Part shown: one piece after another, positions 8,692 through 62,372 of the stretch
Layout of the letters: every line of letters begins with the position of its first letter
How positions within the stretch are numbered: position 1 is the first letter of the stretch
Origin: Podarcis liolepis
Taxonomy: Eukaryota
Assembly: GCA_965112155.1 (NCBI GenBank)
Contig: OZ218099.1
DNA: 64,000 nt
Direction: 5' to 3' (one strand)
Notes under the pieces: generated by a model
Database searches by the model: none
Told to the model about the DNA's origin: nothing
The model's input: only the letters and a program-made list of their open reading frames with translations
Made by a program: the position numbers and the translations under genes

Positions 8692-8696
<5 letters not shown>

Positions 8697-8728
<32 letters not shown>

Positions 8729-8730
8729 AG

Positions 8731-8772
<42 letters not shown>
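8697..8772. repeat. (GT)15-GGAGAT-(AC)20 inverted microsatellite
   Basis: Directly visible. Confidence 0.95.
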
Positions 8773-8774
<2 letters not shown>

Positions 8775-9304
8775 CCATTGCCTTCTGTAGGGAACAATAC
8801 TGCATGTACTGTTAGAATCCCTCATAAACTATATTACTCACCATCTGTCTCTTCTGTACTAGGTAGAATCTGCAAACTTTTCTTTCTTTTTCTGGGAGTT
8901 TCACTTAGCCGGTTAGCAGACTGTTGCTAGAATACTAATGAATTGCCAATACATTTCCATACCTACTATTAAAACAGTGCATATTCCTGGTCACGTTGGA
9001 AGCATATTCTGTGACCAGCACCCTGCAAGTTCTATGTCTTCAAACCAGCAGGAGTTAAATGAGATCATAAATCTGGTCTCCTTTTGAATATGAAAAAGTA
9101 TAGCTTGGGCCTAGTTCATATAAGCTCTTCCACAGCACTGGAGTTTGGCAAGGGTTATGTCACTATTTTATTTTATTTTTTAAATTATTCAAAGCATACA
9201 GTACTAGTGGGAAGTACCCAGTATTGCCCAGGCATTCTAAGAAACATCTTCCTCCCTTACAAATTTATAAATGAATAATGTTATTTGTTAGTTTCTAGTG
9301 CTGT

Positions 9305-25455: not shown

Positions 25456-25561
25456 AAACCAAGGAGATAGGTAACTATGCAACCTTTAGAAGAAATCTGA
25501 AGGCAGTCCTGCATAGCTAAGTTTTTTAAGAATGTTTAATGTTTTATTATGTTTTTATATA

Positions 25562-25787
25562 CAGTGGTACCTCGGGTTAAGTACTTAATTCGTTCTGGAG
25601 GTCCGTTCTTAACCTGAAACTGTTCTTAATCTGGAGCACCACTTTAGCTAATGGAGCCTCCCGCTGCCGCTGCGCTGCCGGAGCACAATTTCTGTTCTCA
25701 TTCTGAAGCAAAGTTCTTAATCCGAGGTACTATTTCTGGGTTAGTGGAGTCTGTAACCTGAAGCGTATGTAACCCAAGGTACCACTG
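25562..25787. mobile_element. Tigger-like MITE
   Basis: TA-CAGTGGTACCTCGGGTTA...TAACCCAAGGTACCACTG-TA. Confidence 0.92.
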
Positions 25788-26424: not shown

Positions 26425-27172
26425 GTTTAGACTTAACCGTTGAAACTTGGATCTGAATAATCAATCAAACCAGGAAAACACAGATCAGATCCAAAAGATA
26501 CTGAACTGATTCCAAACGCTACAGATATAAGCTGATTCTTATAGTTGCTACACACCCCTTACAAATGTATCTGCAGTCGTTAATGGACTCACAAAAATGG
26601 GTAGGCTTTCATCTGGAGTTTCCCTTTAACTACAAAGCTAGGCAATTAGAATGTGGCTAATGTTTTAGTTCCTATGAATGGACCTTCTCATCTGAAACGT
26701 AAGGTTAGCATTGCTTATTCAGTTTTACCCTTCAACTCAGTGTGAAAGTTTTGGATTTCTTATATGTACGTGAAAGTAGAGACTAAGCCAAATAAAATAA
26801 TATATTGCTTGCTTTTCATCTGCTATGTGTACACACTGATGTGAGAAATATGGTGGATGTACTGCAAACTGATCTGAATTGTTGCTTTCAGAAAGGCAGG
26901 GTAAAATATTTTAAGAAATTCATAAATAATAAGTCCTGACCTTCAATCTAACATGTAGAGTAGCAGTTAAGAAAATGTTTTGCATATGCATTAGTTCATA
27001 AACTACATGATTATTATGCTTAACATGATCATAACCTATGATTAAGTTTAAGTACGTGCTTAAGTATAAAGTGTCAAACCTTGAGTAGTTTGAATAAGCA
27101 TTCAGCCAAACTTACTCCGTTCTGATGGATGACAGTTCCATAGATCCATAGTTACCTGATACCAGAAGAGTA

Positions 27173-27414
27173 CAGTGGTACCTCGGGTTAAGAACTTAAT
27201 TCATTCCGGAGGTCCATTCTTAACCTGAAACTGTTCTTAATCTGAGGTATCACTTTAGCTAATGGGGCCTCCCGTTGCCGCCGCGCCGCTGCTGCACAAT
27301 TTCTGTTCTCATCCTGAAGCAAAGTTCCTAACCCGAGGTACTATTTCTGGGTTAGCGGGGTCTGTAACCTGAAGCGTTTGTAACCTGAAGCATCTGTAAC
27401 CCGAGGTACCACTG
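27173..27414. mobile_element. Tigger-like MITE, same family as 25562-25787
   Basis: Same TIRs and TA TSD; one extra 16-bp TGTAACCTGAAGCGTC-type subterminal unit. Confidence 0.92.
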
Positions 27415-27819: not shown

Positions 27820-28650
27820 TTTTGTTTGTTTGTTTGTTTGTTTCTTAAATTTATCAGTCACTTTATCTTGCCCAGGGATACCCAAAGTGACTTACAACCA
27901 AAAAACAAGCAAACAATAAACCCCCACATAGATACATTAACACCAGGAGGAAAGAGAAATACATTAAAAACATCTCACCAACTTATAAAAGACCACAGAT
28001 GCTTAAAGGCTAAATGCCTGGTTATAGAGGAAAGTTTTTGCCTGGCACCTAAAGATATATAATGATGGAGCCAGGGAAACCTGCCTGAGAGAACATTCCC
28101 CAAACAGGGAGCCACCACAGAGAAGACTTGTTCTTGTGTTGCCACCATCAGGACCTCTCATAGAGGGGACAAACTAAGGGCATCAGATGATGATTGCAGT
28201 GTCCAGATCAACTCTTATGGGGAAAGGCAGTCCTTGAAGTATTGTGACCCTGAACCATTTAAGGCTTTATAGGTCAAAACCAGCACTTTGAATTAGGCCT
28301 GGAAACTATTTGGCAGCTGGGCCAAGATTGGAGTAATACGCTCAAACCGCCTTGCCCTGGTGAGCAACTTGGCCAATCAATTCTGCGTCAGCTGAAGTTT
28401 CTGAACTTTCTTCAGAGGCAGCGCTACATCTAACATGTTGCAGAAATCTAACCTAGAGGCTACCAGAGCATACAAAACAGAATATAGGCTATCCCTGTCC
28501 AGATAGGGGCACAGCTGGGTCACCAGCTGAAGCCGGTAGAAGGCACTCCATGCCACTGAGGCCACCTGAATCTCGAGTGACAGCAATGGATCCAGAGGTA
28601 TCCCTAAGCTATGTACCAACTCCTTCAGAGGGAGTGTAACTCCATCAAGA
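27820..28650 (-). mobile_element. L2-like LINE 3' fragment
   Basis: Peptide LDGVTLPLKELVHSLG...ALVASRLDFCN...KLQLTQN and an (AAAC)n/AAAT tail near 27820-27850. Confidence 0.8.
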
Positions 28651-46036: not shown

Positions 46037-48802
46037 GTTGTGCAGAAATTCTATTGGATTCACTAAACTTTTTTTTAACCAGAAAATGAACTTCATACCT
46101 GCCTTGAGTTTTGCTTCAGATGAAATCCAATTTTGTATGAAACTCCTCACTCCCAAACTAAAACCAAGCAAGCAAGCAAAAACCTCAGGTATTCTTTTTC
46201 TGAATAGAACCACCAAATTTGGGTTGATTTTTAAATGATTGTTATTTAGGCCCATTTAATCCCTCACATTTCCTATATCTAAATCTGCCTGGCAACAGTA
46301 TCTGCCACTGGCCTTCTCTATGCTGAGCCATTCATTTCCATGGAAACACAGTCTGGATAGAAAGGCCATAGAAGTAACCTCTGGCTTGAGGCATGGATGA
46401 TTTGGCCACCATCTCCTGTCATGATATTCGAAATGCTGTCTAGTCTGTTATCCGTCTACCCCAGTGTTGTTGAGGTTGGCTGCTTGTGCCATGGATAACT
46501 GTGGGGAAAAGATCCTGGATGAGAGAAAGGATGGGTGAATGGGTGAAGCTAGCAGCTTTGTTTCTACATCTGCCTCCCACACTTCTTCTTCATACAGTAC
46601 ATCTGTTGCTGAGAGATATATAGGGGGTAGGCTTGTACATTCCTTTTGTTACTTTGGCAACTAGCCGGTGGGTGGATAGGATTTGCAGCACTGATTATGT
46701 TCCTCTTGTCTTACTTTGTGGGTATAGTAGACAGTGGTGGGGGTTTGTTGGGGTACAGTTCAGTTCTCCTCTGTGCCCAGTTATTTACCTCCTTATTGAG
46801 TTGCCTGTGTATTTGGGCTTAGAGATATATGGCACACTGACCCCTGAAAGAGAGTCCACTGTGTTAATTCCACCAATCAGTGTTACTTGCTTGCTCCAAA
46901 ATACCTTAATACAATGAGTAACACATTCTATAAATCCATGCAAACAAATGTAAATATTTTCTAATTGTCTTTGTATAATTTAAATCGACTGATGAATGCT
47001 CAATTAGATAGTTTGTTCTGAACTAAAAGAACCCCAATGAGATTGAATATGATGAACTGTTGACTATCCTAATTTTATAATATTAATAAAATATGACTAA
47101 AAATGTAGGAAGGTTAGTGTTTCTGATTTGAAGAACACAAAAGCATGAGGGGGAAAAACGTCCAACGCTGAACATACATATTTAAATTTGTCTGGAGGGT
47201 TTTTGTCAAATTGCCCTGCTGTTCTGTGTAAAAAGCTGTGAATCACCATGGAAACCAATTATTAGTTCCTCATACCATCTCCATATTCAATGAACACCAG
47301 ACCCATCCTATTCTCCATTTTAATTATTGTATGACAAAGTCTACATAATTATTTTCAAAATTTTATTTAACAAGATTTGAAATTACTGTATATAAAGATC
47401 CAATTACTTTCCTAATACATTATTGTTGCTTCTGGTATCTGGGAGATAGCTAAAACATGTCAGGTGGGGGGGGGGGGGGAGAAGTCTCAGGCCAATTACA
47501 TTAGCCACTTTTTATAGCTTGCAATAGCCCAAGGTGGTACAGAAGTTTGACAAACATTCTCATCGATTTCCCCACACACATCTGTTTCCTAAGTAACTTT
47601 TAAAAGTTGAGACATTGTTACTAGAGTTTGTCACATCCCTGCCCTTCTAGATTTTGTCTTTTTTCTAGATAGAAATACAAAATATCATCTTCAACCCTGT
47701 AGATCTTCTTGAGGCCTGGCAGTAGGTAACCAATGGAGGAAGGTTTCCATTGCCCCAATCTTGAAAAACTGTATATTGAGCTAGGTATGAAGAGTGGGGG
47801 AAAGAGATCATATTCCTTAAGAGCCACACTAAAAGTCTCATAGCAACTGCAGGTGTTGGGATGGATCTAATTAGCACCAGAACATTTGAAAGGGGAACAA
47901 GTTCACGCTTTTCCACTGTGCTGTTTTTTTTTTTTTGATTAAAATTGTACACAGAGCCTGCCAAAGCTGCTATTTTCACTAAATGGTAAAACAGACGAGT
48001 ACCCATATGGAACCAGTATGTCTGTTCCTGTGGGACAAACTGTAGCTTCCTAAGGGGGAAGATTCAGTTGAGCATGGGAAGAGTTCATTTCCTTTGGGGC
48101 TCTCTGCAGCTCCTATTAAACTTAAAAAATAAAACAAAATAGTAGCAAGATCCAGTCATGGATCTCCCAGTGCCCTGCCTAGCAATTTTGTGAATGTTTA
48201 GTTAGAAGTAAAAGCCTCTCTATTGAAAGCATTAAACAGTAAAGATAAGCATGCATAGGATTTTAGGCTAAAAAACAAAAAAAGTATTGTAGTCCACTTA
48301 CATTGGCCATGGTGGAAAGTAGGAACAATCTGGTTTTATTTTAAACCTGGTTGCTGCACTAGTTCCAGGCACTGAAACCAGGAGAAGATTAAGCCCAGTG
48401 CTGAGACTGGCTAGGAATCCAATTAATCTGGGCTAGCGGACAGCTCTCCCATGACCTTTCCATCCACCTAGACATTTGGTGGCAGCAGAAAGCCAGCTCA
48501 CTTGGAGAAGATAGGTAGAGGGACCCCTGTTCCTAATCTAACCCCACATTATCTGGGAACTCCCTGTGGGTGGATTTCTCATCTGATCATGCATTTATCC
48601 ATCTTTTGATCTGGTTTGCCTTTAAAACACTGTGGGGGAAATATTGGGGTTCAAATCTGGGCCGCCTGGAACAGATGGTAGAAATCCACACACCAATTGT
48701 CAGTCAAACAGGACATTTATTTAGGCCATTGCAACACAACCTCAGCCAGCAAGTAGTCGAGGGCTGGCCCACCGAATATGAAAGCAGCACAAGCATTTAT
48801 AC

Positions 48803-48938
48803 CAGGCATAGGCAAACTCGGCCCTCCTGATGTTTTGAGACTACAACACCCATCATCCCTGACCACTGGTCCTGTTAGCTAGGGGTGATGGGAGCTGTAG
48901 TCCCAAAACATCTGGAGGGACAAGTTGGCCTATGCCTG
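48803..48938. mobile_element. hAT MITE (136 bp)
   Basis: CAGGCATAGGC...GCCTATGCCTG; 8-bp TSD ATTTATA(C/G). Confidence 0.9.
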
Positions 48939-49211
48939 ATTTATAGACTTACAAGCAAAGGGGCAGTTATGTCCATATACGGCAGTACTTCCTTCTACTA
49001 GCTTGATCACATGGCACAACAACTTCCTAGCTTTCCCTCCCTCCTTTGTCCTCAATGGTTATAGCTCCTGATCATGTGTCCTTGTGTCCATCTCTCATTG
49101 TTCTCTTGCAAACACAATGGGAGAACGGGCCATTTCCAGGGTGGCTCCCCGCTTGTGGAATGTTCTCCCCAGGGAGGCTCAATGGGTGCCTTCATTACAT
49201 ATCTTTAGGCA

Positions 49212-49414
49212 CAATGTTCATAATTTCTCCAATAACGCCACAGATGGCTTTACAGTGTGTTTATTCCATATAGTTACATTATTTTTACTTTTATATACAA
49301 CCCTTCGATATATTCCCAGGGCTGTATACAAATTGTATACAAATTGTAAAACAATTTAAATGTAAATACAAAATTAATTAATTATTTCTAGAGAGCCACA
49401 AAATCATAAAAGCA

Positions 49415-49448
<34 letters not shown>

Positions 49449-49468
49449 ACCTTTCAGCAGGACTGAAA
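49212..49468 (+). repeat. Copy 1 of ~257-bp flank duplication (left of copia)
   Basis: CAATGTTCATAATTTC...(GT)15...CAGGACTGAAA matches 54704-54962 except for the GT repeat count. Confidence 0.95.
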
Positions 49469-49854
49469 TGTTAGGATATTTCCGTTCCACCTTAACAGGG
49501 AGCAGGCTTTGGGAGACACAGAGTCTGCGCATGTCCTGATTCACAGGATGTTTATGTTTCTGCTTGTTGTTTCCTTTCGTTTTCAGTCGGCTCAGACACG
49601 CTGACAGAATGGACGTGTTTTCTTTTGTTCTGTTAAACGCTAAATAAAGTCTGTAAATTATGTTCTTCTGTGATGCAAGCTTTTGGCTGTATTTCTGCTG
49701 AAAGAGGGTGCACCAGCCTAGGAATGTGGCTAGGAATTTCTAAGGCTTTGTGCCCCTAACTGTTGGATCTGCGTGACTACGGGAGGCCGATGGAATCTCC
49801 GAGCTCCGGCTTGGGGGCCATGATGGACGTTATCTCCCTGGCAGTTTCCCAACA
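49469..49854 (+). repeat. Copia 5' LTR (~386 bp)
   Basis: Starts TGTTAGG and ends CCCAACA (imperfect terminal inverted repeat); AATAAA at 49643-49648. The end could alternatively be 49857 because of AACAACA. Confidence 0.95.
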
Positions 49855-49858
49855 ACAA

Positions 49859-49872
49859 GGTTTCGGGCCCAG
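49859..49872 (+). promoter_or_regulatory. Primer-binding site, half-tRNA-iMet (Drosophila copia/hemivirus) type, 2 mismatches
   Basis: GGTTTCGGGCCCAG just after the 5' LTR, versus the canonical copia PBS GGTTATGGGCCCAG, which pairs with the anticodon arm of initiator tRNA-Met. Confidence 0.75.
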
Positions 49873-50125
49873 ATTCACGGCACCTACAGGAGAGTAAAGC
49901 TGCAACAGACTGCGTTTAAGAGGTACGGTGGGAAAAGCGAAAGAAATGAGGGAGGCTTTTGGCTTTTCTGTTTACCTCTCCGGCAAGGCTTAATTGGCCT
50001 GGGAGCTGAGCCAAAAAGGCTTCGTGATTAATGAGCTGCCAAGATAAGGAGTCTTTGAAGGCATAGGGCTCAGGGCTCAAGTAAAAAGCTGAGATGGATC
50101 TTTTACAGACCTCAGAAACTGCTCC

Positions 50126-53100
50126 GTGTCCACTAAAGCTGAATGCCCTAAGTTGGATGGGCAGAATTATGAACCCTGGGCAAAATGGTGTGAGAGTTTA
50201 CTGCGTCAGTTTGGGGTGTGGCATGTTGTTTATGAAGCCCCCCCAGTTCCTCTGACAGAGAGATGGAAATCAGCTGATTCGAGAGCGATGGACATAATAG
50301 TCCTATCCGTATCTCTTGAGGAAATTAAGACGCTGGCTGGCAACACCACTGCACGTGCAATGTGGAATGCTTTAAAAAAAGCTCATTTGCCAATAATCCC
50401 AGCCCAGAGTTTGACTGCATCGGAGGTCCTAGCTGTTTCCCAGAATGCGTATGAGTGCAGGGATGCTGAGGGCACCGGTTGCAAGCTGCAGGGGGAGCTG
50501 ACCGTCACGTCATCCCAGGCAGCATTCCAGCCTCCAGGGGGAGCCAAGGAGTCGGCAGCTGAGAGCTCTGGTTCTCGTGAGAACCAAGGTCATCGCCTTT
50601 GCAGAGGCCGGAAAAGCAAAGGTAAACAGATGTCTACAGATGGCCAGGAGCAGAGGGAGGGTGAAGAGCCCGCGGCGCCAGGGAAAAACAAAGCATTGTT
50701 TGCTGGCACAGCTTCACCAAAGGCTAAAGGCACGTCTGCTGGCCAGGAGCAGCAGGGGGGCAAGCTGCAAAAGCCCAAACCGCTGCAAAACAAGGGTTTG
50801 CTTGCTGTAAGGACTGCTCCAACAGCCAAAGGCAGGTTTATTGTGGACTCAGGTGCCAGCCGCCACGTTTCCAAGGACAGGCATCTCTTTATCTCCTTCA
50901 AGCCTCAGGAAGGTGAGATCCACCTGGCTGATGGAAGGACGTTGCAAATTGCAGGAGAAGGGACTGTGAAACTTGCAAGTTTGCACACAACCATCAGTGG
51001 TGTACTATATGTTCCAGGCGCTGCAAGCAACTTGTTGAGTGTCCCACAGCTTACTGGGCGTGGTTTTCAGATTTCCTTCAAGAGGAGCGTCTGTGTCATC
51101 AGTAAAGGCAAAGAGGACTATTTGCATGCAAAGTTTATGGATGGTTTGTTCCATATAACTTATGATGACACTGTTGTTGTATCTAATGCTGATTCTTGTT
51201 GTGTTGCACAAACTAACAAAGTTCTTCATGCAGGTTGCATTCATGATGCACATCGAAGATTTTGTCACCTCTCTTGGAAGGCACTGGCCAAGATGCCAGA
51301 GGTGGTTGAGGGTTTGAACATCAAACCTTGTAAATTTCACATGAAATGTGTATCTTGTGCAGAGAACAAGGTGAAGGTTGCTCCAAAAGGCAAGGAGTCT
51401 AGCAGGCAGGCTTCCAAACCCTACCAGCTAGTGCATGCGGACCTGGTTGGTCCACTTGCGCCCTCTATAGGAGGAGCAAGGTACTTCATGATTCTGATTG
51501 ATTCTTTTTCCAGGTACATTCATGTGTATTTGCTCGAACAGAAATCGCAAGCGTTTCCGAAGTTTAAGGAATTCTGTGCTTGGTTGGAGAATGTGCACGG
51601 TAAACGTATTTCTTGTTTTTTTACTGATCGGGGCGGGGAGTTTACTTCTCAGCAGTTTGAAGCTTTCCTGACTGAGAAGGGAATCCAGCATGACATGTCA
51701 ACGCCCAGATCGCCATGGATGAATGGGCTTGCGGAGAGAACAAATCAAACATTGCTGCAAGGAATCAAGACCTTGTTGCATGATGCCAATCTCCCTGATA
51801 AGTTTTGGGGGGAGGCTTTGGGGAATTTTGTTTACAGCTTTAATCGCAGATTGTCATCACCCATTGGTTGTACCCCCTATGAGAAGATGTTTGGCAAGAA
51901 ACCCAACACCAAACACATGAGAATTTTTGGTTCAGACATGTGGGTACGCACACAACAAACCAACAAGCTTGGGAAGCGTGGGGCACATGGTTTGTTCATG
52001 GGGTACGAAAAAGGTGCATACAGGGTATGGATGACTGACTCTAAGTCCATTAAGTTCACAAGGAGTGTTGAGTACAATCCTAAGTGGGGGGAAAATGTGG
52101 GAATTTTCCAGAGTTACCCAGAGGAGGATGAAGGTGATGTCAAGCAAGCAGCTAAAGATGAGAAAGCTGCTGCTGAAGATGATGAGGATGAGGATGAGGA
52201 TGATGAGGATGATGATGATGATCAGAGTTCGGATTCCAGTTCAGTGGGCGGCGCTGCTGCTGCTGCTGGTATCAGTGACAGTGATGACACAGCAGACTAC
52301 AAGAGCGCACAGGCCTCAGTCAGACCATCTGATGCGTCTGACAATGAACTGGAAGAACCACTGTTCACCATTGGTCAATTTTCTCCTAAGAAAGAGGAGA
52401 TGAGTCCAGAAGACTTGCGTCTAGTACGCAGATCTGAAAGGGCGACCAAAGGCAGACCTCCAAAGAGGTATGCTGATGAGTTTGCTAAGACAGCAACTGC
52501 TGTTCTTGGTAGCTCAGAGAAGGTATGGGAACCTTCAAGCTTCAAAGAGGTTCAGGAGTTAACCTCTAAAGATGCTGAGCCTTGGCTTAATGCCATGAAG
52601 GCTGAAGTTGATTCCTTGAACAGGAACCAAACTTGGGAATTGGTACCGGTAGTCCCAGGAATGAGACTGGTTGGCAGCAAATGGGTCTTCAAGGCCAAGA
52701 CAGACCAGAATGGCAAGGTAGTCAGACACAAAGCCAGATTAGTTGCCAGAGGTTTTTCACAGGTACCAGGACAGGATTACCACGAGACCTACTCTCCCAC
52801 AGTCAAATATGAGAGCATTCGGCTGATGCTCAAGATCGCTGCGGAGGAGAAACTGCATGTTTCCCACCACGACATTAATACAGCTTTTTTGTACGGGATT
52901 TTGAATGAACAGCTGTTCATGCTTCCACCTGATGGGATGGAGATACAGAAGGGTATGGTCTGTAAACTGCGGAAATCCTTATATGGTCTTAAGCAGAGTG
53001 CCAGGTGTTGGAACACAAAACTCACTGAGACATTGCTTTCTCTAGGTTTTCACCAGGGCAAAGCTGATCCATGTGTGTTTGTCAAGGAGGAGGGGCAAAA

Positions 53101-54103
53101 CAAACTGTATTGTTTATGTTTTGTTGATGATCTTCTGATGTTTTGGAAGAATCAGGCTTTTTACCAAAGCACCCTAGCTCAACTGAAGGAGCACTTTGAC
53201 ATGAAGGATCTTGGTGAGGTATCCAACTATCTTTCTCTGCAGGTGGAGAAGGACCAAGCAGGTAATTTTCTGGTACACCAAACACAGAAAATTGCTGATG
53301 TATTAACCAGGTTGAATTTGGTTGATGCAAACCCAGCAGACACACCGATGGTGACAGGTTACCAGGTAGACAGTACTGCTGAAGCGTTTTCTGACACAAC
53401 GCTATACAGATGCATTCTAGGCAAGCTGAATTTCATTGCCAGATGTTCAAGACCTGACATAGCTGTAAGCTGTAATCTGCTTAGCAGACATGCCAACAAT
53501 CCTACGGTTCAGGATTGGAAAGCTCTGAAGCGCATAGCCCGCTATTTGAAAGGAACTATGCACTACAGGCTGAGGTTCACCAGTCAGAAGACTGGAGGTC
53601 TTGAAATCTTTGCAGATGCAAGTTTTGGAAGTGACACCACGGATGGTACAAGCACTTCTGGAGTATGCTACATGTACAACCACTGCCTGTTTGACTGGTT
53701 GTGCAAGAAGCAAACAACAGTGAGCCTAAGTTCCTGTGAAGCAGAACTCAATGCTCTGTCATTTTCACTCATGGATTGTGAATGGTTGATGCAACTGTTT
53801 AAGGACATCAGGGTGTCTGTGAAATGTCCTGTACAAGTGTATCAAGACAATAGATCGTGTTTGGCTTTGCTGAACTCCGAGAGTTGCAAGCAGAGAACCA
53901 AGTACTTGCAGATTAAGTTACATCGTGCAAGAGAGTGTATCCAGAAAGGACTGATTCAGGTGTCCTACATGCCAGGAAATGAAATTCCTGCTGATCTGTT
54001 GTCTAAGGTTGTTAACAAAGAACAACTAAAGGTTTATGTACAAAAGTTGCAATTGGGTGAACCACAGGTACTACAGGTTACACGGAAAGGGGGAGGATGT
54101 TAG
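50126..54103 (+). CDS. Copia gag-pol polyprotein (1325 codons, no internal stops)
   Basis: Gag N-terminus KLDGQNYEPW and TARAMWNALKK; protease FIVDSGASRH (Asp codon 50846); integrase HHCC (HRRFCH...CVSC) and DDE (VHADLVGP, TDRGGEF, NGLAER); RT (GSKWVFK, DINTAFL, SLYGLKQS, FVDD at 53120-53131); RNase H (FADASF, CEAEL, QDNRS, ADLLSK). The start is a GTG; the first in-frame ATG is at 50288. The stop TAG lies inside the 3' LTR. Confidence 0.95.
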   Translation: MSTKAECPKLDGQNYEPWAKWCESLLRQFGVWHVVYEAPPVPLTERWKSADSRAMDIIVLSVSLEEIKTLAGNTTARAMWNALKKAHLPIIPAQSLTASEVLAVSQNAYECRDAEGTGCKLQGELTVTSSQAAFQPPGGAKESAAESSGSRENQGHRLCRGRKSKGKQMSTDGQEQREGEEPAAPGKNKALFAGTASPKAKGTSAGQEQQGGKLQKPKPLQNKGLLAVRTAPTAKGRFIVDSGASRHVSKDRHLFISFKPQEGEIHLADGRTLQIAGEGTVKLASLHTTISGVLYVPGAASNLLSVPQLTGRGFQISFKRSVCVISKGKEDYLHAKFMDGLFHITYDDTVVVSNADSCCVAQTNKVLHAGCIHDAHRRFCHLSWKALAKMPEVVEGLNIKPCKFHMKCVSCAENKVKVAPKGKESSRQASKPYQLVHADLVGPLAPSIGGARYFMILIDSFSRYIHVYLLEQKSQAFPKFKEFCAWLENVHGKRISCFFTDRGGEFTSQQFEAFLTEKGIQHDMSTPRSPWMNGLAERTNQTLLQGIKTLLHDANLPDKFWGEALGNFVYSFNRRLSSPIGCTPYEKMFGKKPNTKHMRIFGSDMWVRTQQTNKLGKRGAHGLFMGYEKGAYRVWMTDSKSIKFTRSVEYNPKWGENVGIFQSYPEEDEGDVKQAAKDEKAAAEDDEDEDEDDEDDDDDQSSDSSSVGGAAAAAGISDSDDTADYKSAQASVRPSDASDNELEEPLFTIGQFSPKKEEMSPEDLRLVRRSERATKGRPPKRYADEFAKTATAVLGSSEKVWEPSSFKEVQELTSKDAEPWLNAMKAEVDSLNRNQTWELVPVVPGMRLVGSKWVFKAKTDQNGKVVRHKARLVARGFSQVPGQDYHETYSPTVKYESIRLMLKIAAEEKLHVSHHDINTAFLYGILNEQLFMLPPDGMEIQKGMVCKLRKSLYGLKQSARCWNTKLTETLLSLGFHQGKADPCVFVKEEGQNKLYCLCFVDDLLMFWKNQAFYQSTLAQLKEHFDMKDLGEVSNYLSLQVEKDQAGNFLVHQTQKIADVLTRLNLVDANPADTPMVTGYQVDSTAEAFSDTTLYRCILGKLNFIARCSRPDIAVSCNLLSRHANNPTVQDWKALKRIARYLKGTMHYRLRFTSQKTGGLEIFADASFGSDTTDGTSTSGVCYMYNHCLFDWLCKKQTTVSLSSCEAELNALSFSLMDCEWLMQLFKDIRVSVKCPVQVYQDNRSCLALLNSESCKQRTKYLQIKLHRARECIQKGLIQVSYMPGNEIPADLLSKVVNKEQLKVYVQKLQLGEPQVLQVTRKGGGC
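54084..54097 (+). promoter_or_regulatory. Polypurine tract
   Basis: GGAAAGGGGGAGGA directly abuts the TG of the 3' LTR. Confidence 0.9.
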
Positions 54104-54480
54104 GATATTTCCGTTCCACCTTAACAGGGAGCAGGCTTTGGGAGACACAGAGTCTGCGCATGTCCTGATTCACAGGATGTTTATGTTTCTGCTTGTTGTT
54201 TCCTTTCGTTTTCAGTCGGCTCAGACACGCTGACAGAATGGACGTGTTTTCTTTTGTTCTGTTAAACGCTAAATAAAGTCTGTAAATTATGCTCTTCTGT
54301 GATGCAAGCTTTTGGCTGTATTTCTGCTGAAAGAGGGTGCACCAGCCTAGGAATGTGGCTAGGAATTTCTAAGGCTTTGTGCCCCTAACTGTTGGATCTG
54401 CGTGACTACGGGAGGCCGATGGAATCTCCGAGCTCCGGCTTGGGGGCCATGATGGACGTTATCTCCCTGGCAGTTTCCCA
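54098..54480 (+). repeat. Copia 3' LTR (383 bp, terminal bases missing)
   Basis: Identical to the 5' LTR except T49663/C54292. Similarity stops at ...CAGTTTCCCA, without the final ACA. Confidence 0.95.
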
Positions 54481-54703
54481 GGGAGATATTTGCTTAACAA
54501 CTTGACCATTCTCAGGCTGGCCTTGCGATTTTGACACTGCTAAATTCAGCTAAGCATTGATTAAATTCTAGCACTGACTAAATCCAAGCATCCACAAACT
54601 CTGATACTCTAAAAATTAATAATAATAATAGTAATCATAATAGTAATAAGCAATAGCATCCACCCTTCCATTGCACAGCCCTTCTCTCACACATTTCAGT
54701 TTT

Positions 54704-54906
54704 CAATGTTCATAATTTCTCCAATAACGCCACAGATGGCTTTACAGTGTGTTTATTCCATATAGTTACATTATTTTTACTTTTATATACAACCCTTCGA
54801 TATATTCCCAGGGCTGTATACAAATTGTATACAAATTGTAAAACAATTTAAATGTAAATACAAAATTAATTAATTATTTCTAGAGAGCCACAAAATCATA
54901 AAAGCA

Positions 54907-54942
<36 letters not shown>

Positions 54943-54962
54943 ACCTTTCAGCAGGACTGAAA
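54704..54962 (+). repeat. Copy 2 of flank duplication (right of copia)
   Basis: Same sequence as 49212-49468 but with (GT)16. Confidence 0.95.
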
Positions 54963-56985
54963 TACATTTGGGAGCTCTTTGCCACTGATGAAAATTTTCC
55001 CCAATTCGGTGCACTGAAATCTTCACAAGCTACTGCGATGCAGGAAGAACAACTGAGAGGGCACCAGTGCTTCCCAAAGGACAAGCATAGATACTGCTCA
55101 TTAGTCAAGGCAACTTCGCTATCATTAGAAACACTGCGAGCTCAAAGAAACCCCACAGTATGTTGCTGTACAATCTAAGGTCACCGTACATAAAGAAATG
55201 CCATCCCAAATTGGCACGGTGCTTGAGAGCCTTATAGAAAAGCATATTGACAGTGAAACTGTTCTAATCAGGTAAATTATCACTTTGCACACACAAAAAG
55301 ACAGATTTCCTTAATAACATCACAGCTCTGGGGAAGTTGGAGGAGAGGTCATCAATAAAAGCAATTACACGTTCAATGGGAGCAGCAAAGTATGCTATAG
55401 CACGTTTCTCGATCTTTTTGGTAATTTCAAATGGGTTGTCCTTGTATGAAACAAGCCCATTTTAAAAGTCATGCAACACATCAATACTACCAATAAGCAT
55501 TAGGTTAGATTTCATTTTATGGAACGGCTGTCCTTCTGTTATAGGTCCTAAACCAAAAGGACATCCTGCCATGTCAAACCCTACGCTGTGGTGTCCCATT
55601 TCTGGGGGGACGGGGGACGGGACATGATCTGGCACAGAGTCAGTATAGGGGAACAACTTATCTCTTTCTTTGGATGCTAGGAAAAATGTATCTGCCTTTT
55701 ATGGTGTTGTGCTGGACTTCTGACCCACATTCTTGTAACTCACAGACGTGCTGCAAGGGGGCACTTGCGCCGATCACTCGGAATGGGAATGCAGTCACGG
55801 AATATTATGGGCTATTTCAGTAAAAGTTAATATTTATTTCCGCATCATGGAGTGGGGATGCCATTTTAAGTTTGTTTCTTTATTAAAAATGAGGACCATC
55901 CCATCATATAAAATATCAAGGCGGAATACAATAAATATGAAACGCACAGTAAAACATAAAATGCCATAGATGCAAATTAAAATAATTCTTAATGGTCAGT
56001 CACTTTAAGCCAACTGTCTTCAGTTGGTGGGTTGGGGGCCTGATCCAAAGCAAGATGCAACTGGAGCACCACCACCATGCAAATATGTGGTAAAAAAGAA
56101 AAGAAAAAAAGAAATGGGTCATCAAATGCATGTTTGTGTTAAAAGTGGTCCTGGAACAGGTTTGGGTGGAGCAATTTCATTACATTTATTTAAAGTGTAG
56201 TTAAAATTGACATTGGACATCTACTGGACATTGTGGTGATCACATCTTTTTAGAAGGTTAGTATATTAATTGTATCATCCTGGAAGTAATCGTGGTGCAA
56301 TCTAAAAGCTTCAGACATAGATCTCTCTAGAGCACGCATGAATTGCATTAACAGAAGCAGCAGCAACCCATGAAATTTCCATTGCCCGCCCAGCTGTTGA
56401 AATTCAGTGGGAGATACTGCTGCTGTTTGTGACACGACATCTGATTTAATATTTATATCGCACATTTAATATTTATATAGCACAATGATGTGCTAGATGC
56501 TGTACAGAATACAAAGGCAATGCCAAATGCATAAATTAGGCGTATCACAACCTGATGCTTCTCAGAGGGCTTGCTAGCCATATTGAAGATCTAGCTGCAT
56601 GCAGAAAATCAACGTCCCTGATTTTAACAACTGCAACATGCAATTGTTTCAATATATACCTCTCCAGAAGGGATTAAGCCTGTCAAAATCTGATCCGTTC
56701 AGGAGTATCCAAGCAGAGAATCTTGGAAAGTTTTTTTGTTTTTTTCTAAGGAAAGTCTCTAGCAATTTTTATTTTTTACCAGAATCAATTGCAAATGTGC
56801 CCAGTGGGCACATTTCAGAAAGATGGGTACAGCAGTTCTTCCACGAGGAAGGCCTTTCTGGTTGAGGATGAGATGGTAGAAAATATGTTCCCTCCCCTGA
56901 TTTGATTTTTTGGGGTGATCAGGTTGAAAATTGGGTTATGGCAGAGGTTCCCCGGGTCAAAAACCTGACAAATGTTAGATAAATG

Positions 56986-60446: not shown

Positions 60447-61769
60447 TCATGTATAGTGAGATAAGAATCCAATGTCTTTGTTCAGCCCAGGTCTCTCCAT
60501 TGTTTTAAGTTTGGTAATGAGTTGTAATTCAGCAGCTTCTCTTTCCAGTCTATTTCTGAAATTCCTTTGTAGTAAAACAGCTACTTTGAGATCTTGTATA
60601 GAATGTCCTGGGAGATTGAAGTGTTCTCCTACTGGTTTCTCTGTTTTGTGATTCTTGATGTCAGATTTATGTCCGTTTATTCTTTGGCGTAAGGTTTGGC
60701 CTGTTTGTCCAATATAGAGAGCTGAAGGACACTGTTGGCATTTGATGGCATACACAATGTTAGACGATGAGCAATTAAATAGTCCCGAGATGGTATGTGT
60801 GATGTTGTTGGGGCCAGTAATGGTGTTGTCCGGGTGTATGTGGCAGCAAAGTTGGCATCTGGGTTTATTGCAGGCTCTGGTGCCAGTGTCCGTGTTAAGT
60901 CTGGTTGTAGTATTATTGTGGGTTAGGAGTTGTTTAAGATTGGGTGGCTGTCTGTAGGCAATGAAAGGTCTTCCTCCCAGAGCTTGAGAAAGAGAACTGT
61001 CATTGTCCAGGGGAGGTTGTAGATCTCTGATGATGCGTTGTACTGTTTTAACTTGGGAGCTGTATGTGATGACTAGAGGTGTTCTGTTATTTTCTTTTTT
61101 GGGTCTGTCTTGCAGCAAGTTCTCTCTGGGTATCAGTCTGGCTCTGTTGATCTGTTGTCTAACTTCATCTGCTGGGTATTTTAGTTCTGAGAAGGTTTGC
61201 TGTAGATCTCTTAGGTGAGAGTCTCTGTCTGTAGAATTGGAACAGATGCGGCTGTAACGTAGTGCCTGGCTATATACAATGGACTGTTTGGTATGTTTGG
61301 GATGGTAGCTAGAGGCATGTAGATATGTTTATCGGTCAGTTGGTTTGCGGTATAAGGTGGTGTCTATGCGCCCATCCTGTATTTTTATAGTAGTGTCCAA
61401 AAAATGTATTTCTTGCATAGATTGATTCATTGTAAGGTTGATTGTGGGGTGAAAATCATTAAATTTCTGGTGAAAGGTGTCCAGGGTCTGTTGACCATGT
61501 GTCCAGATGATAAAAATATCGTCAATGTATCGCAGGTACAAGAGAGGTTTGAGTGGGTAGGAGTTCAGGAAACGTTGTTCTAAATCTGCCATGAAGATGT
61601 TGGCATACTGTGGGGCCATGCGGGTGCCCATTGCTGTGCCGCTGATCTGAAGGAACAGGTCATCACCGAATTTGAAGTTGTTGTGGGTAAGGACAAATTG
61701 GCAGAGTTTGGTGGCAAGGTCCGCTGTGGTTTTATCTGAAATGGTGTTCCTTATAGCTTGTAAACCATC
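60447..61769 (-). pseudogene. Penelope RT/GIY-YIG ORF remnant with one premature stop
   Basis: ORFs 61329-61631 and 60447-61118 are in the same frame and separated only by TAA at 61329-61331. The N-terminal part is missing through truncation. Confidence 0.9.
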
Positions 61770-62372
61770 GACAAAATATCTTTGTCAGCTTTGTGCATGG
61801 CCAGCTCACCCGTGAGGCAAGGTGAGGCGACTGCCTCAGGCAGCAGGAGCCACAGGTGCAGCATATCCTGATGTAGACTATTTATTTATTTATTTGATTT
61901 CTATACTGCCCTTCGTCAAAAGATCTCACGGCGGTTCGCAAGATAAGCACACAAGAGATAAGCACAAATAAGTAGTTAAAGCGGAAACAACAAAACAATA
62001 CCCCCCAAATACATCTAAAAGGCTGTAGAATACTAATCAGTCAAAGATCTTAAACCCATCCTTGTTGCTGATGTAGCTCTTTATGCACCCCTTCTTCTCT
62101 AGCGGGGAGGGGAGCTGCCATTTTGTGGTTCGTCCCTGGCTGTGTGGAGTTTCTACACAGAAAGTGTTCTCTATGGAAATTGCACATATCACTGTGTAGC
62201 CCTTTCCACCGGCAATTGCTGAATTGCATTTCTGCTAAGAAGGGGCAGAGCAATCCAAACTCCTATTGTGTTGGGCTGGAAGTGGTGGTGGATTGGGTCC
62301 ACCCAGCCCTGCCAACCTCCTTTGGCCTCCTACCAGCCCAGAAATCTGTGGGAGGGTAGAAATACCACACCA

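Follow-up and report, generated by a model that had tools for sequence, protein, structure and literature searches.

In the parts of the literature available here, one-ended joining by ASLV and HIV is described as leaving the other 3' end often trimmed and able to prime on nearby DNA, and host repair may then copy several templates, with a duplication or a deletion as the outcome (PMC5041404). In the XMRV clone C-3, one of 15 sites, 5 bp of one LTR end were lost and a 273-bp host duplication was formed (PMC2857682). For HERV-K (HML-2), the accessible text reports that 8 of 451 putative TSDs were longer than 10 bp (13-450 bp), presents a 250-bp long TSD that was validated by its empty allele and discusses the pseudo-TSD as a rival explanation (PMC5488345). 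HML-2 insertions without a TSD and with target deletions have also been described (PMC10742618). Copia elements were reported in 23 of 24 squamates, where they belong mostly to the Mtanga clade (PMC11889832). We searched by title and start of abstract for a copia or squamate precedent of aberrant integration and found none; most subscription papers lay outside this search.

In the window (the whole 64,000-nt stretch of DNA that was analysed), a copia element of 5,012 bp (49469-54480) lies between two copies of a host segment, A and A' (Table 1). A preliminary description of the locus had proposed the order A, copia element, 54481-54703, A', and our analysis recovered this layout with all its coordinates. 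A global alignment of A and A' presented a single 2-nt gap and no substitution over 227 non-repeat bases, in agreement with the earlier statement that the two copies differ only in the length of a GT run, which is (GT)15 at 49417-49446 in A and (GT)16 at 54909-54940 in A'. The left LTR starts with an exact TG at 49469. The right LTR ends at 54480. Measured against the left LTR, whose end at 49854 mirrors the 5' terminus, it lacks 3 nt, or 6 nt should the true LTR end be 49857. One exact and one aberrant end are the combination expected of one-ended integration. No TSD of 4-6 bp was found at offsets of -3 to +7 around the element, and this copy thus departs from the short (~5-bp) TSD that is general for Ty1/copia elements. 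The clean left junction, the damaged right LTR end and the missing 5-bp TSD noted previously were all borne out.

Table 1. Coordinates of the features at the locus, from left to right (strand given as + or, where not assigned, as a dot).
Feature	Position	Strand	Remarks
LINE-like 3' fragment	49118..49211	+	Breaks off at 49211, where the rearrangement has its left breakpoint
A, left copy of the host segment	49212..49468 (257 nt)	.	(GT)15; left joint derived
5' LTR	49469..49854	+	TG...CA; imperfect 7-nt inverted ends; possible end at 49857
PBS-like motif	49859..49872	+	Putative; read from the sequence
gag-pol open frame, 1336 codons	50093..54103	+	Order gag-PR-IN-RT-RNase H; stop-free
Polypurine tract	54084..54097	+	Adjoins the 3' LTR; read from the sequence
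3' LTR	54098..54480	+	Without the last 3 (or 6) nt; stops at an internal CA
Junction bases (8), possibly non-native	54481..54488	+	Sole candidate for true filler
F, native upstream flank of A'	54489..54703	.	Judged from relatives' contigs
A', right copy of the host segment	54704..54962 (259 nt)	.	(GT)16; flanked as ancestrally by F to the left and by downstream DNA to the right

The 223 nt between the element and A' (54481-54703) had been considered filler DNA without a match elsewhere in the window. The absence of a match was confirmed by blastn with word size 7, which returned only AT-rich scraps from the rest of the window, and an exact-pattern scan for F in metagenomes yielded 0 loci. The interpretation as filler did not survive the comparison with other genomes. 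A search of sequencing runs with 54482-56500 listed 24 runs, 20 of them with the stretch, from 7 studies, and the contigs of four of these 24 were compared over 53900-56400: X15 and X1 (organism A), X17 (organism B) and X5 (organism E). Record 21 of X17 (927 nt, depth 31) spans 54651-55561, that is, the tail of F, the whole of A' and the downstream DNA, D. Segment A is present once in organism B, in one unbroken contig whose depth is like that of D, and 3 sites are listed at which it departs from A'. Record 29 of X5 spans 54651-54899 and likewise crosses from F into A', record 13 of X15 covers 54546-54698 and position 54526 is covered at low depth in all four runs. A half-depth allele in X15 also carries at least 30 letters on the F side of A.

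Because contigs of B and E run from the tail of F into A', we deduced that F-A-D is the ancestral order and that the joint between the LINE-like fragment and A is derived. These contigs indicate that F is the native flank upstream of A. The check on sister organisms proposed earlier, which asked whether LINE plus A or the supposed filler plus A' is ancestral, thus points to the latter in B and E. A captured filler would be absent from empty alleles, and F is contiguous with A' in X17 and X5; the picture is that of a host rearrangement relative to an empty allele, with F-A-D single in B and the joint of F and A crossed in E. Nor does the locus carry a true long TSD of the HERV-K 7p21.2 type, since A' stands 223 nt away from the LTR and relatives carry F before A. 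A 351-nt contig of X1, at depth 8.2, agrees with 54489-54557 and continues with 282 nt unlike the compared span; if this contig represents the orthologous empty allele, only 54481-54488 would be foreign. Provided that the LINE precedes F in the native order, the derived joint of LINE and A, where F is missing, points to a concealed loss on the left of at least the roughly 215 bp of F together with a further stretch.

The depth of the X15 contigs bears on the reality of the allele. This was the best-matching of the runs, with 0 other letters over 1140+333+150 nt, and its depths were 34.3 for D, 49 for the shared part of A, 29.6 for F and 15.5 for a second allele, or 2.0, 2.9, 1.7 and 0.9 when expressed as haploid copies. 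These copy numbers suggest one haplotype with two copies of A and another with a single, altered A. The second allele shows a loss of 43 nt and 7 added letters at 54707-54749, which neither copy in the window presents; its break lies 3 nt away from that of the rearrangement. If X15 is the source of the window or a carrier of the allele, these values favour a real heterozygous duplication rather than a merge artefact, and we have fair confidence that the observation is real. An A/D ratio of the size seen in X15 could nevertheless be noise at low depth, because a single contig of X5 over the tail of F and A has a depth of 12 vs 8.3 for D. In X1, 11 of 30 bins were covered and A and D were without cover, a hole that carries no weight. 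No contig crossed from the LTR into F or from A into the LTR among the 32 of 2344 contigs and 24 of 256 loose ends listed, and the compared span started downstream of the LINE/A joint. Every loose end listed mapped to the LTR and internal region or next to them, and no TSD could be read from these ends. Exact-pattern scans with the LTR end gave 0 loci in metagenomes and viral contigs.

On the left, the preliminary description had A begin where a LINE-like fragment breaks off at 49211, and this was supported by two other copies in the window that continue with a common stretch, which is missing past 49211. The fragment, putatively L2-like, is 80% identical over 71 nt to the copy at 28048-28116; Pfam found no family in the frame beside that copy. 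When the head of A was compared in register with the expected LINE continuation, 21 of 40 and 29 of 60 positions were identical, values reached by 45 of 127,922 (0.035%) and 39 of 127,882 (0.03%) window positions, respectively. Against the second LINE copy, just 16 of 40 positions matched, and local alignments of the head of A with the LINE continuation were not significant (p 0.4-0.7); the identity ahead of the break was 19 of 24. This likeness is probably due to chance; otherwise, it would favour an older LINE-A allele. We rejected homeologous recombination of F with the LINE fragment, as the tail of F matches at 11-13 of 40 positions, which is the level of chance.

The element presents the features of Ty1/copia: a domain order with a copia-type RT, two direct TG...CA LTRs, a polypurine tract and a putative PBS, the motif of which resembles the primer-binding site of animal copia elements. 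The gag-pol frame matched the Pfam families Retrotran_gag_2 (33-111), Pol_BBD (249-325), rve (441-541), SH3_retrovirus and RVT_2 (845-1087, E 2.6e-68) and contains HHCC, D450-D512-E548 (D-D-35-E), DSGAS and FVDD motifs. Because no CCHC knuckle was found in this frame and its first in-frame ATG is codon 66, the autonomy of the element is only putative. The two LTRs are identical at 382 of 383 positions, a divergence of 0.26% (95% range 0.007-1.5%). Among the 100 homologues listed, 91 ranked above the first match bearing RVT_1, and the closest protein found reached 62% over residues 380-680 (the integrase region) and 59% over 1100 columns; a protein-seeded scan for the element gave 0 loci. The summed contig depth over the element end was in the thousands in all four runs, which gives no copy number and points to a large, high-copy family in the runs compared. 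The domain order and the RVT_2 class are shared with the Ty1/copia elements of squamates, as far as these are described in the available text, and, copia elements being common in squamates, the element itself is ordinary (PMC11889832). Rfam and ARAGORN returned 0 matches, and a stop-broken frame at 54982-55641 (minus strand) had no match in Pfam or among PDB sequences.

Our results suggest that the locus probably goes back to a single insertion, with one copia cDNA end joined by integrase and the other completed by host repair. The empty allele would have been U-LINE-X-F-A-D, with X a stretch of unspecified length, and the product U-LINE, then A, the copia element short of 3 nt, F, A' and D. 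A random break in a 5-kb element has a chance of about 0.08% of falling within 3 nt of the LTR end; a right join at this distance is expected of a free cDNA end. Duplication and insertion both appear young because the LTRs differ at one of 383 positions, A and A' present no substitutions and B differs at 3 listed sites. We infer the integrase-joined end, the simultaneous formation of the three junctions and the native position of the LINE upstream of F.

Two paths would lead to this product. It is a substantial possibility, somewhat short of an even chance, that integrase joined the exact left end between A and D. The free right 3' end would then have been trimmed and have primed on the host at the start of F, some 475-480 bp upstream, and F and A would thereby be duplicated; end joining over the second join site would have removed X and F from the left copy, and the remaining 257 bp would mimic a long TSD. 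Alternatively, with a modest chance, integrase may have joined the right end at the internal CA, between X and F. The left end would in this case have been extended over A and then end-joined to the LINE with deletion of X, and A itself would be templated filler. The former path is the likelier one. It requires a deletion beyond the simple model in the available text of PMC5041404; the latter has one step fewer, yet conflicts with the tentative 8-nt insert. The lesions are linked under either path because the deleted stretch must include the right-join site. Junction-spanning 9-mers recur, one at 49168 within the LINE fragment, its sole recurrence in the window, and one within A at 49313. These matches were found post hoc and receive little weight, since 7 of 580 control windows reach at least 9, which is near chance.

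Half-site integration or repair linked to the insertion, as first proposed for this locus, thus holds as the best reading given the exact left end, the right join 3 nt off, the near-identical LTRs and the lack of substitutions between A and A'. Of the duplication and foreign DNA that had been placed on the right, the local duplication stands; the foreign DNA does not, and a deletion on the left takes its place. More tentatively, and with some doubt on our part, a segregating germline allele may here record one multi-template repair, with the 257-bp "long TSD" hiding a larger duplication and a deletion.

Several other histories can be weighed against one-ended integration. A rearrangement could have preceded an aberrant insertion and created a "pseudo-TSD": one option is that a deletion haplotype with LINE joined to A-D existed already, and repair of the free right end used the homologue as its template at F; the other is that repair first placed a copy of A in the LINE, and that the element then inserted into this copy with loss of the DNA on its right side. 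This would explain the LINE/A joint without a second lesion in one event and would turn (GT)15 and (GT)16 into an allelic difference. The X15 allele with the 43-nt loss, which starts 3 nt from the breakpoint, indicates that the spot does rearrange, the in-register LINE likeness in the head of A would be accounted for, and both repair-mediated duplications into repeats (PMC2671141) and pseudo-TSDs (PMC5488345) appear in the parts of the literature at hand. We nevertheless regard such a history as unlikely: A and A' present no substitution in 227 non-repeat bases, no allele joining LINE to A appears in X17 or X5, whose contigs cross F/A' unbroken (X1 has no cover of A), and an aberrant right end would still be required. 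It is quite unlikely that a normal insertion with a 5-bp TSD later lost this TSD in an unrelated rearrangement, whether by template switching or by a non-homologous exchange involving the empty homologue. Such a sequence of events would accommodate three junctions and a deletion, which exceed the simple half-site model, and the one LTR mismatch leaves some time for it; however, the break would have to fall within 3 nt of the LTR end (~0.08% if random) and a second rare event would have to strike a very young, apparently heterozygous allele.

An assembly artefact in which two haplotypes were merged across the element appears very unlikely. In its favour, no read was seen across the new junctions, and reads from a single locus could produce differences that are confined to a microsatellite. 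A merge predicts, however, copy numbers of 2 for A and 1 for F, whereas X15, if it is the source or a carrier, has about 2.9 and 1.7 (with D at 2), and the 43-nt loss places its other A apart from either window copy. Most improbable is an ancestral order LINE-A-D with F as filler from elsewhere: F has no match in the window and the head of A bears a weak in-register LINE likeness, but single contigs of B and E cross F/A', the depth of F in X15 is close to diploid and 54526 is covered in all four runs.

The mechanism of one-ended integration has been described for crippled retroviruses in cultured cells and is suspected at a few HERV-K loci; this locus would extend it to a natural copia element in a reptile-like germline. 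The locus also illustrates how events of this kind are misread when the empty allele is missing, for the "filler" proved to be native and the deletion was hidden. A single locus alters little, and a family-wide count of such ends would provide a natural error rate for LTR integration. If this reading is true and such alleles form a measurable fraction of this high-copy squamate family, structural variants in wild vertebrates would arise directly from integrase misfires, and catalogues of long TSDs would understate the damage.

Since the same signature was made experimentally, in XMRV C-3 (PMC2857682) and with ASLV and HIV (PMC5041404), we counted it in favour of one-ended integration. As far as the available text of these and the following sources shows, C-3 is similar in that a few bases, including the CA, were lost from one LTR end, the other end was normal and a duplication replaced the short TSD. 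C-3 is however a somatic event of a gammaretrovirus in cell culture, and its duplication adjoins the provirus on both sides, whereas the natural copia insertion has its right copy about 220 bp off, behind native flank, and a deletion on the left. The ASLV and HIV events share one normal and one often truncated end, duplications of hundreds of bases and deletions; they were provoked by mutated ends, by inhibitors or by a weak integrase, unlike this natural germline case, and their basic model yields a duplication or a deletion, whereas both occur here on one allele (PMC5041404). The HERV-K cases are natural germline LTR insertions with long host repeats (250-450 bp) on either side, but they concern betaretrovirus-like ERVs whose repeats adjoin the LTRs, whereas A' stands apart from its LTR (PMC5488345). 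In non-classical HML-2 insertions, those with target deletions are missing both ends (PMC10742618), unlike the present element, which is whole save 3 nt. Repair-mediated duplications resemble the locus in placing a short, closely linked copy of nearby DNA in a broken repeat; here, in contrast, the copy meets the LTR end exactly and the remainder of the repeat does not resume (PMC2671141). The locus is neither a true long TSD nor a capture of distant filler, and it works like the one-ended events of XMRV and HERV-K.

In the contigs of run X15 (organism A), an allele at half depth lacks 43 nt (54707-54749) at the start of A', the right-hand copy of the host segment, and presents 7 other letters in their place. 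This loss begins 3 nt away from the left-copy breakpoint, the joint between the LINE-like fragment and the left-hand copy A. Window position 54746 is covered by run contigs of the related organisms B and E, and the loss accordingly looks derived. It is possible that this spot is fragile.

The sequence of A was compared with the other copies of the LINE-like fragment, found at ~28 kb and ~15.5 kb of the window. In register with the expected continuation of the 28-kb copy, the head of A (49213-49272) was identical at 21 of 40 and 29 of 60 positions, a likeness that is probably due to chance. The local alignment assigning an old LINE-like tail to A was equalled by 2 of 1000 shuffles.

Repeats and reading frames in the window
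Feature	Position	Strand	Remarks
Microsatellite pair, (GT)n then directly (CA)n	8692-8775		near-perfect, hairpin-forming
215-nt repeat, two copies	25560-25774 and 27171-27385		90% identity, 1.6 kb apart
Solo-LTR-like stretch, ~490 bp	48631-49116		TG...CA bounds
Palindromic MITE	~48802-48938		inside solo-LTR-like stretch; relatives at 3.7, 26.3, 57.0 kb
Old LINE-like 3' tail, within A	49270-49350	-	local alignment to tail of 15.5-kb copy
220-codon frame	54982-55641	-	only 4 stops; just 3' of A'
RT (RVT_1) and GIY-YIG frames	60447-61784	-	5'-truncated; domain pair

The stretch with TG...CA bounds looks like a solo LTR, and no TSD was seen at it. The 220-codon frame reads like decayed coding sequence; Pfam and PDB-sequence searches with it returned no match. 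Shorter units related to the 215-nt repeat are also present. The pairing of RVT_1 with GIY-YIG points to a Penelope-like element. Finally, most of the copia-family depth in runs X15, X1 (both organism A), X17 (organism B), and X5 (organism E) carries other letters at positions 53941, 54141, and 54145. The copia copy of the window is thus a minority variant within a large family.
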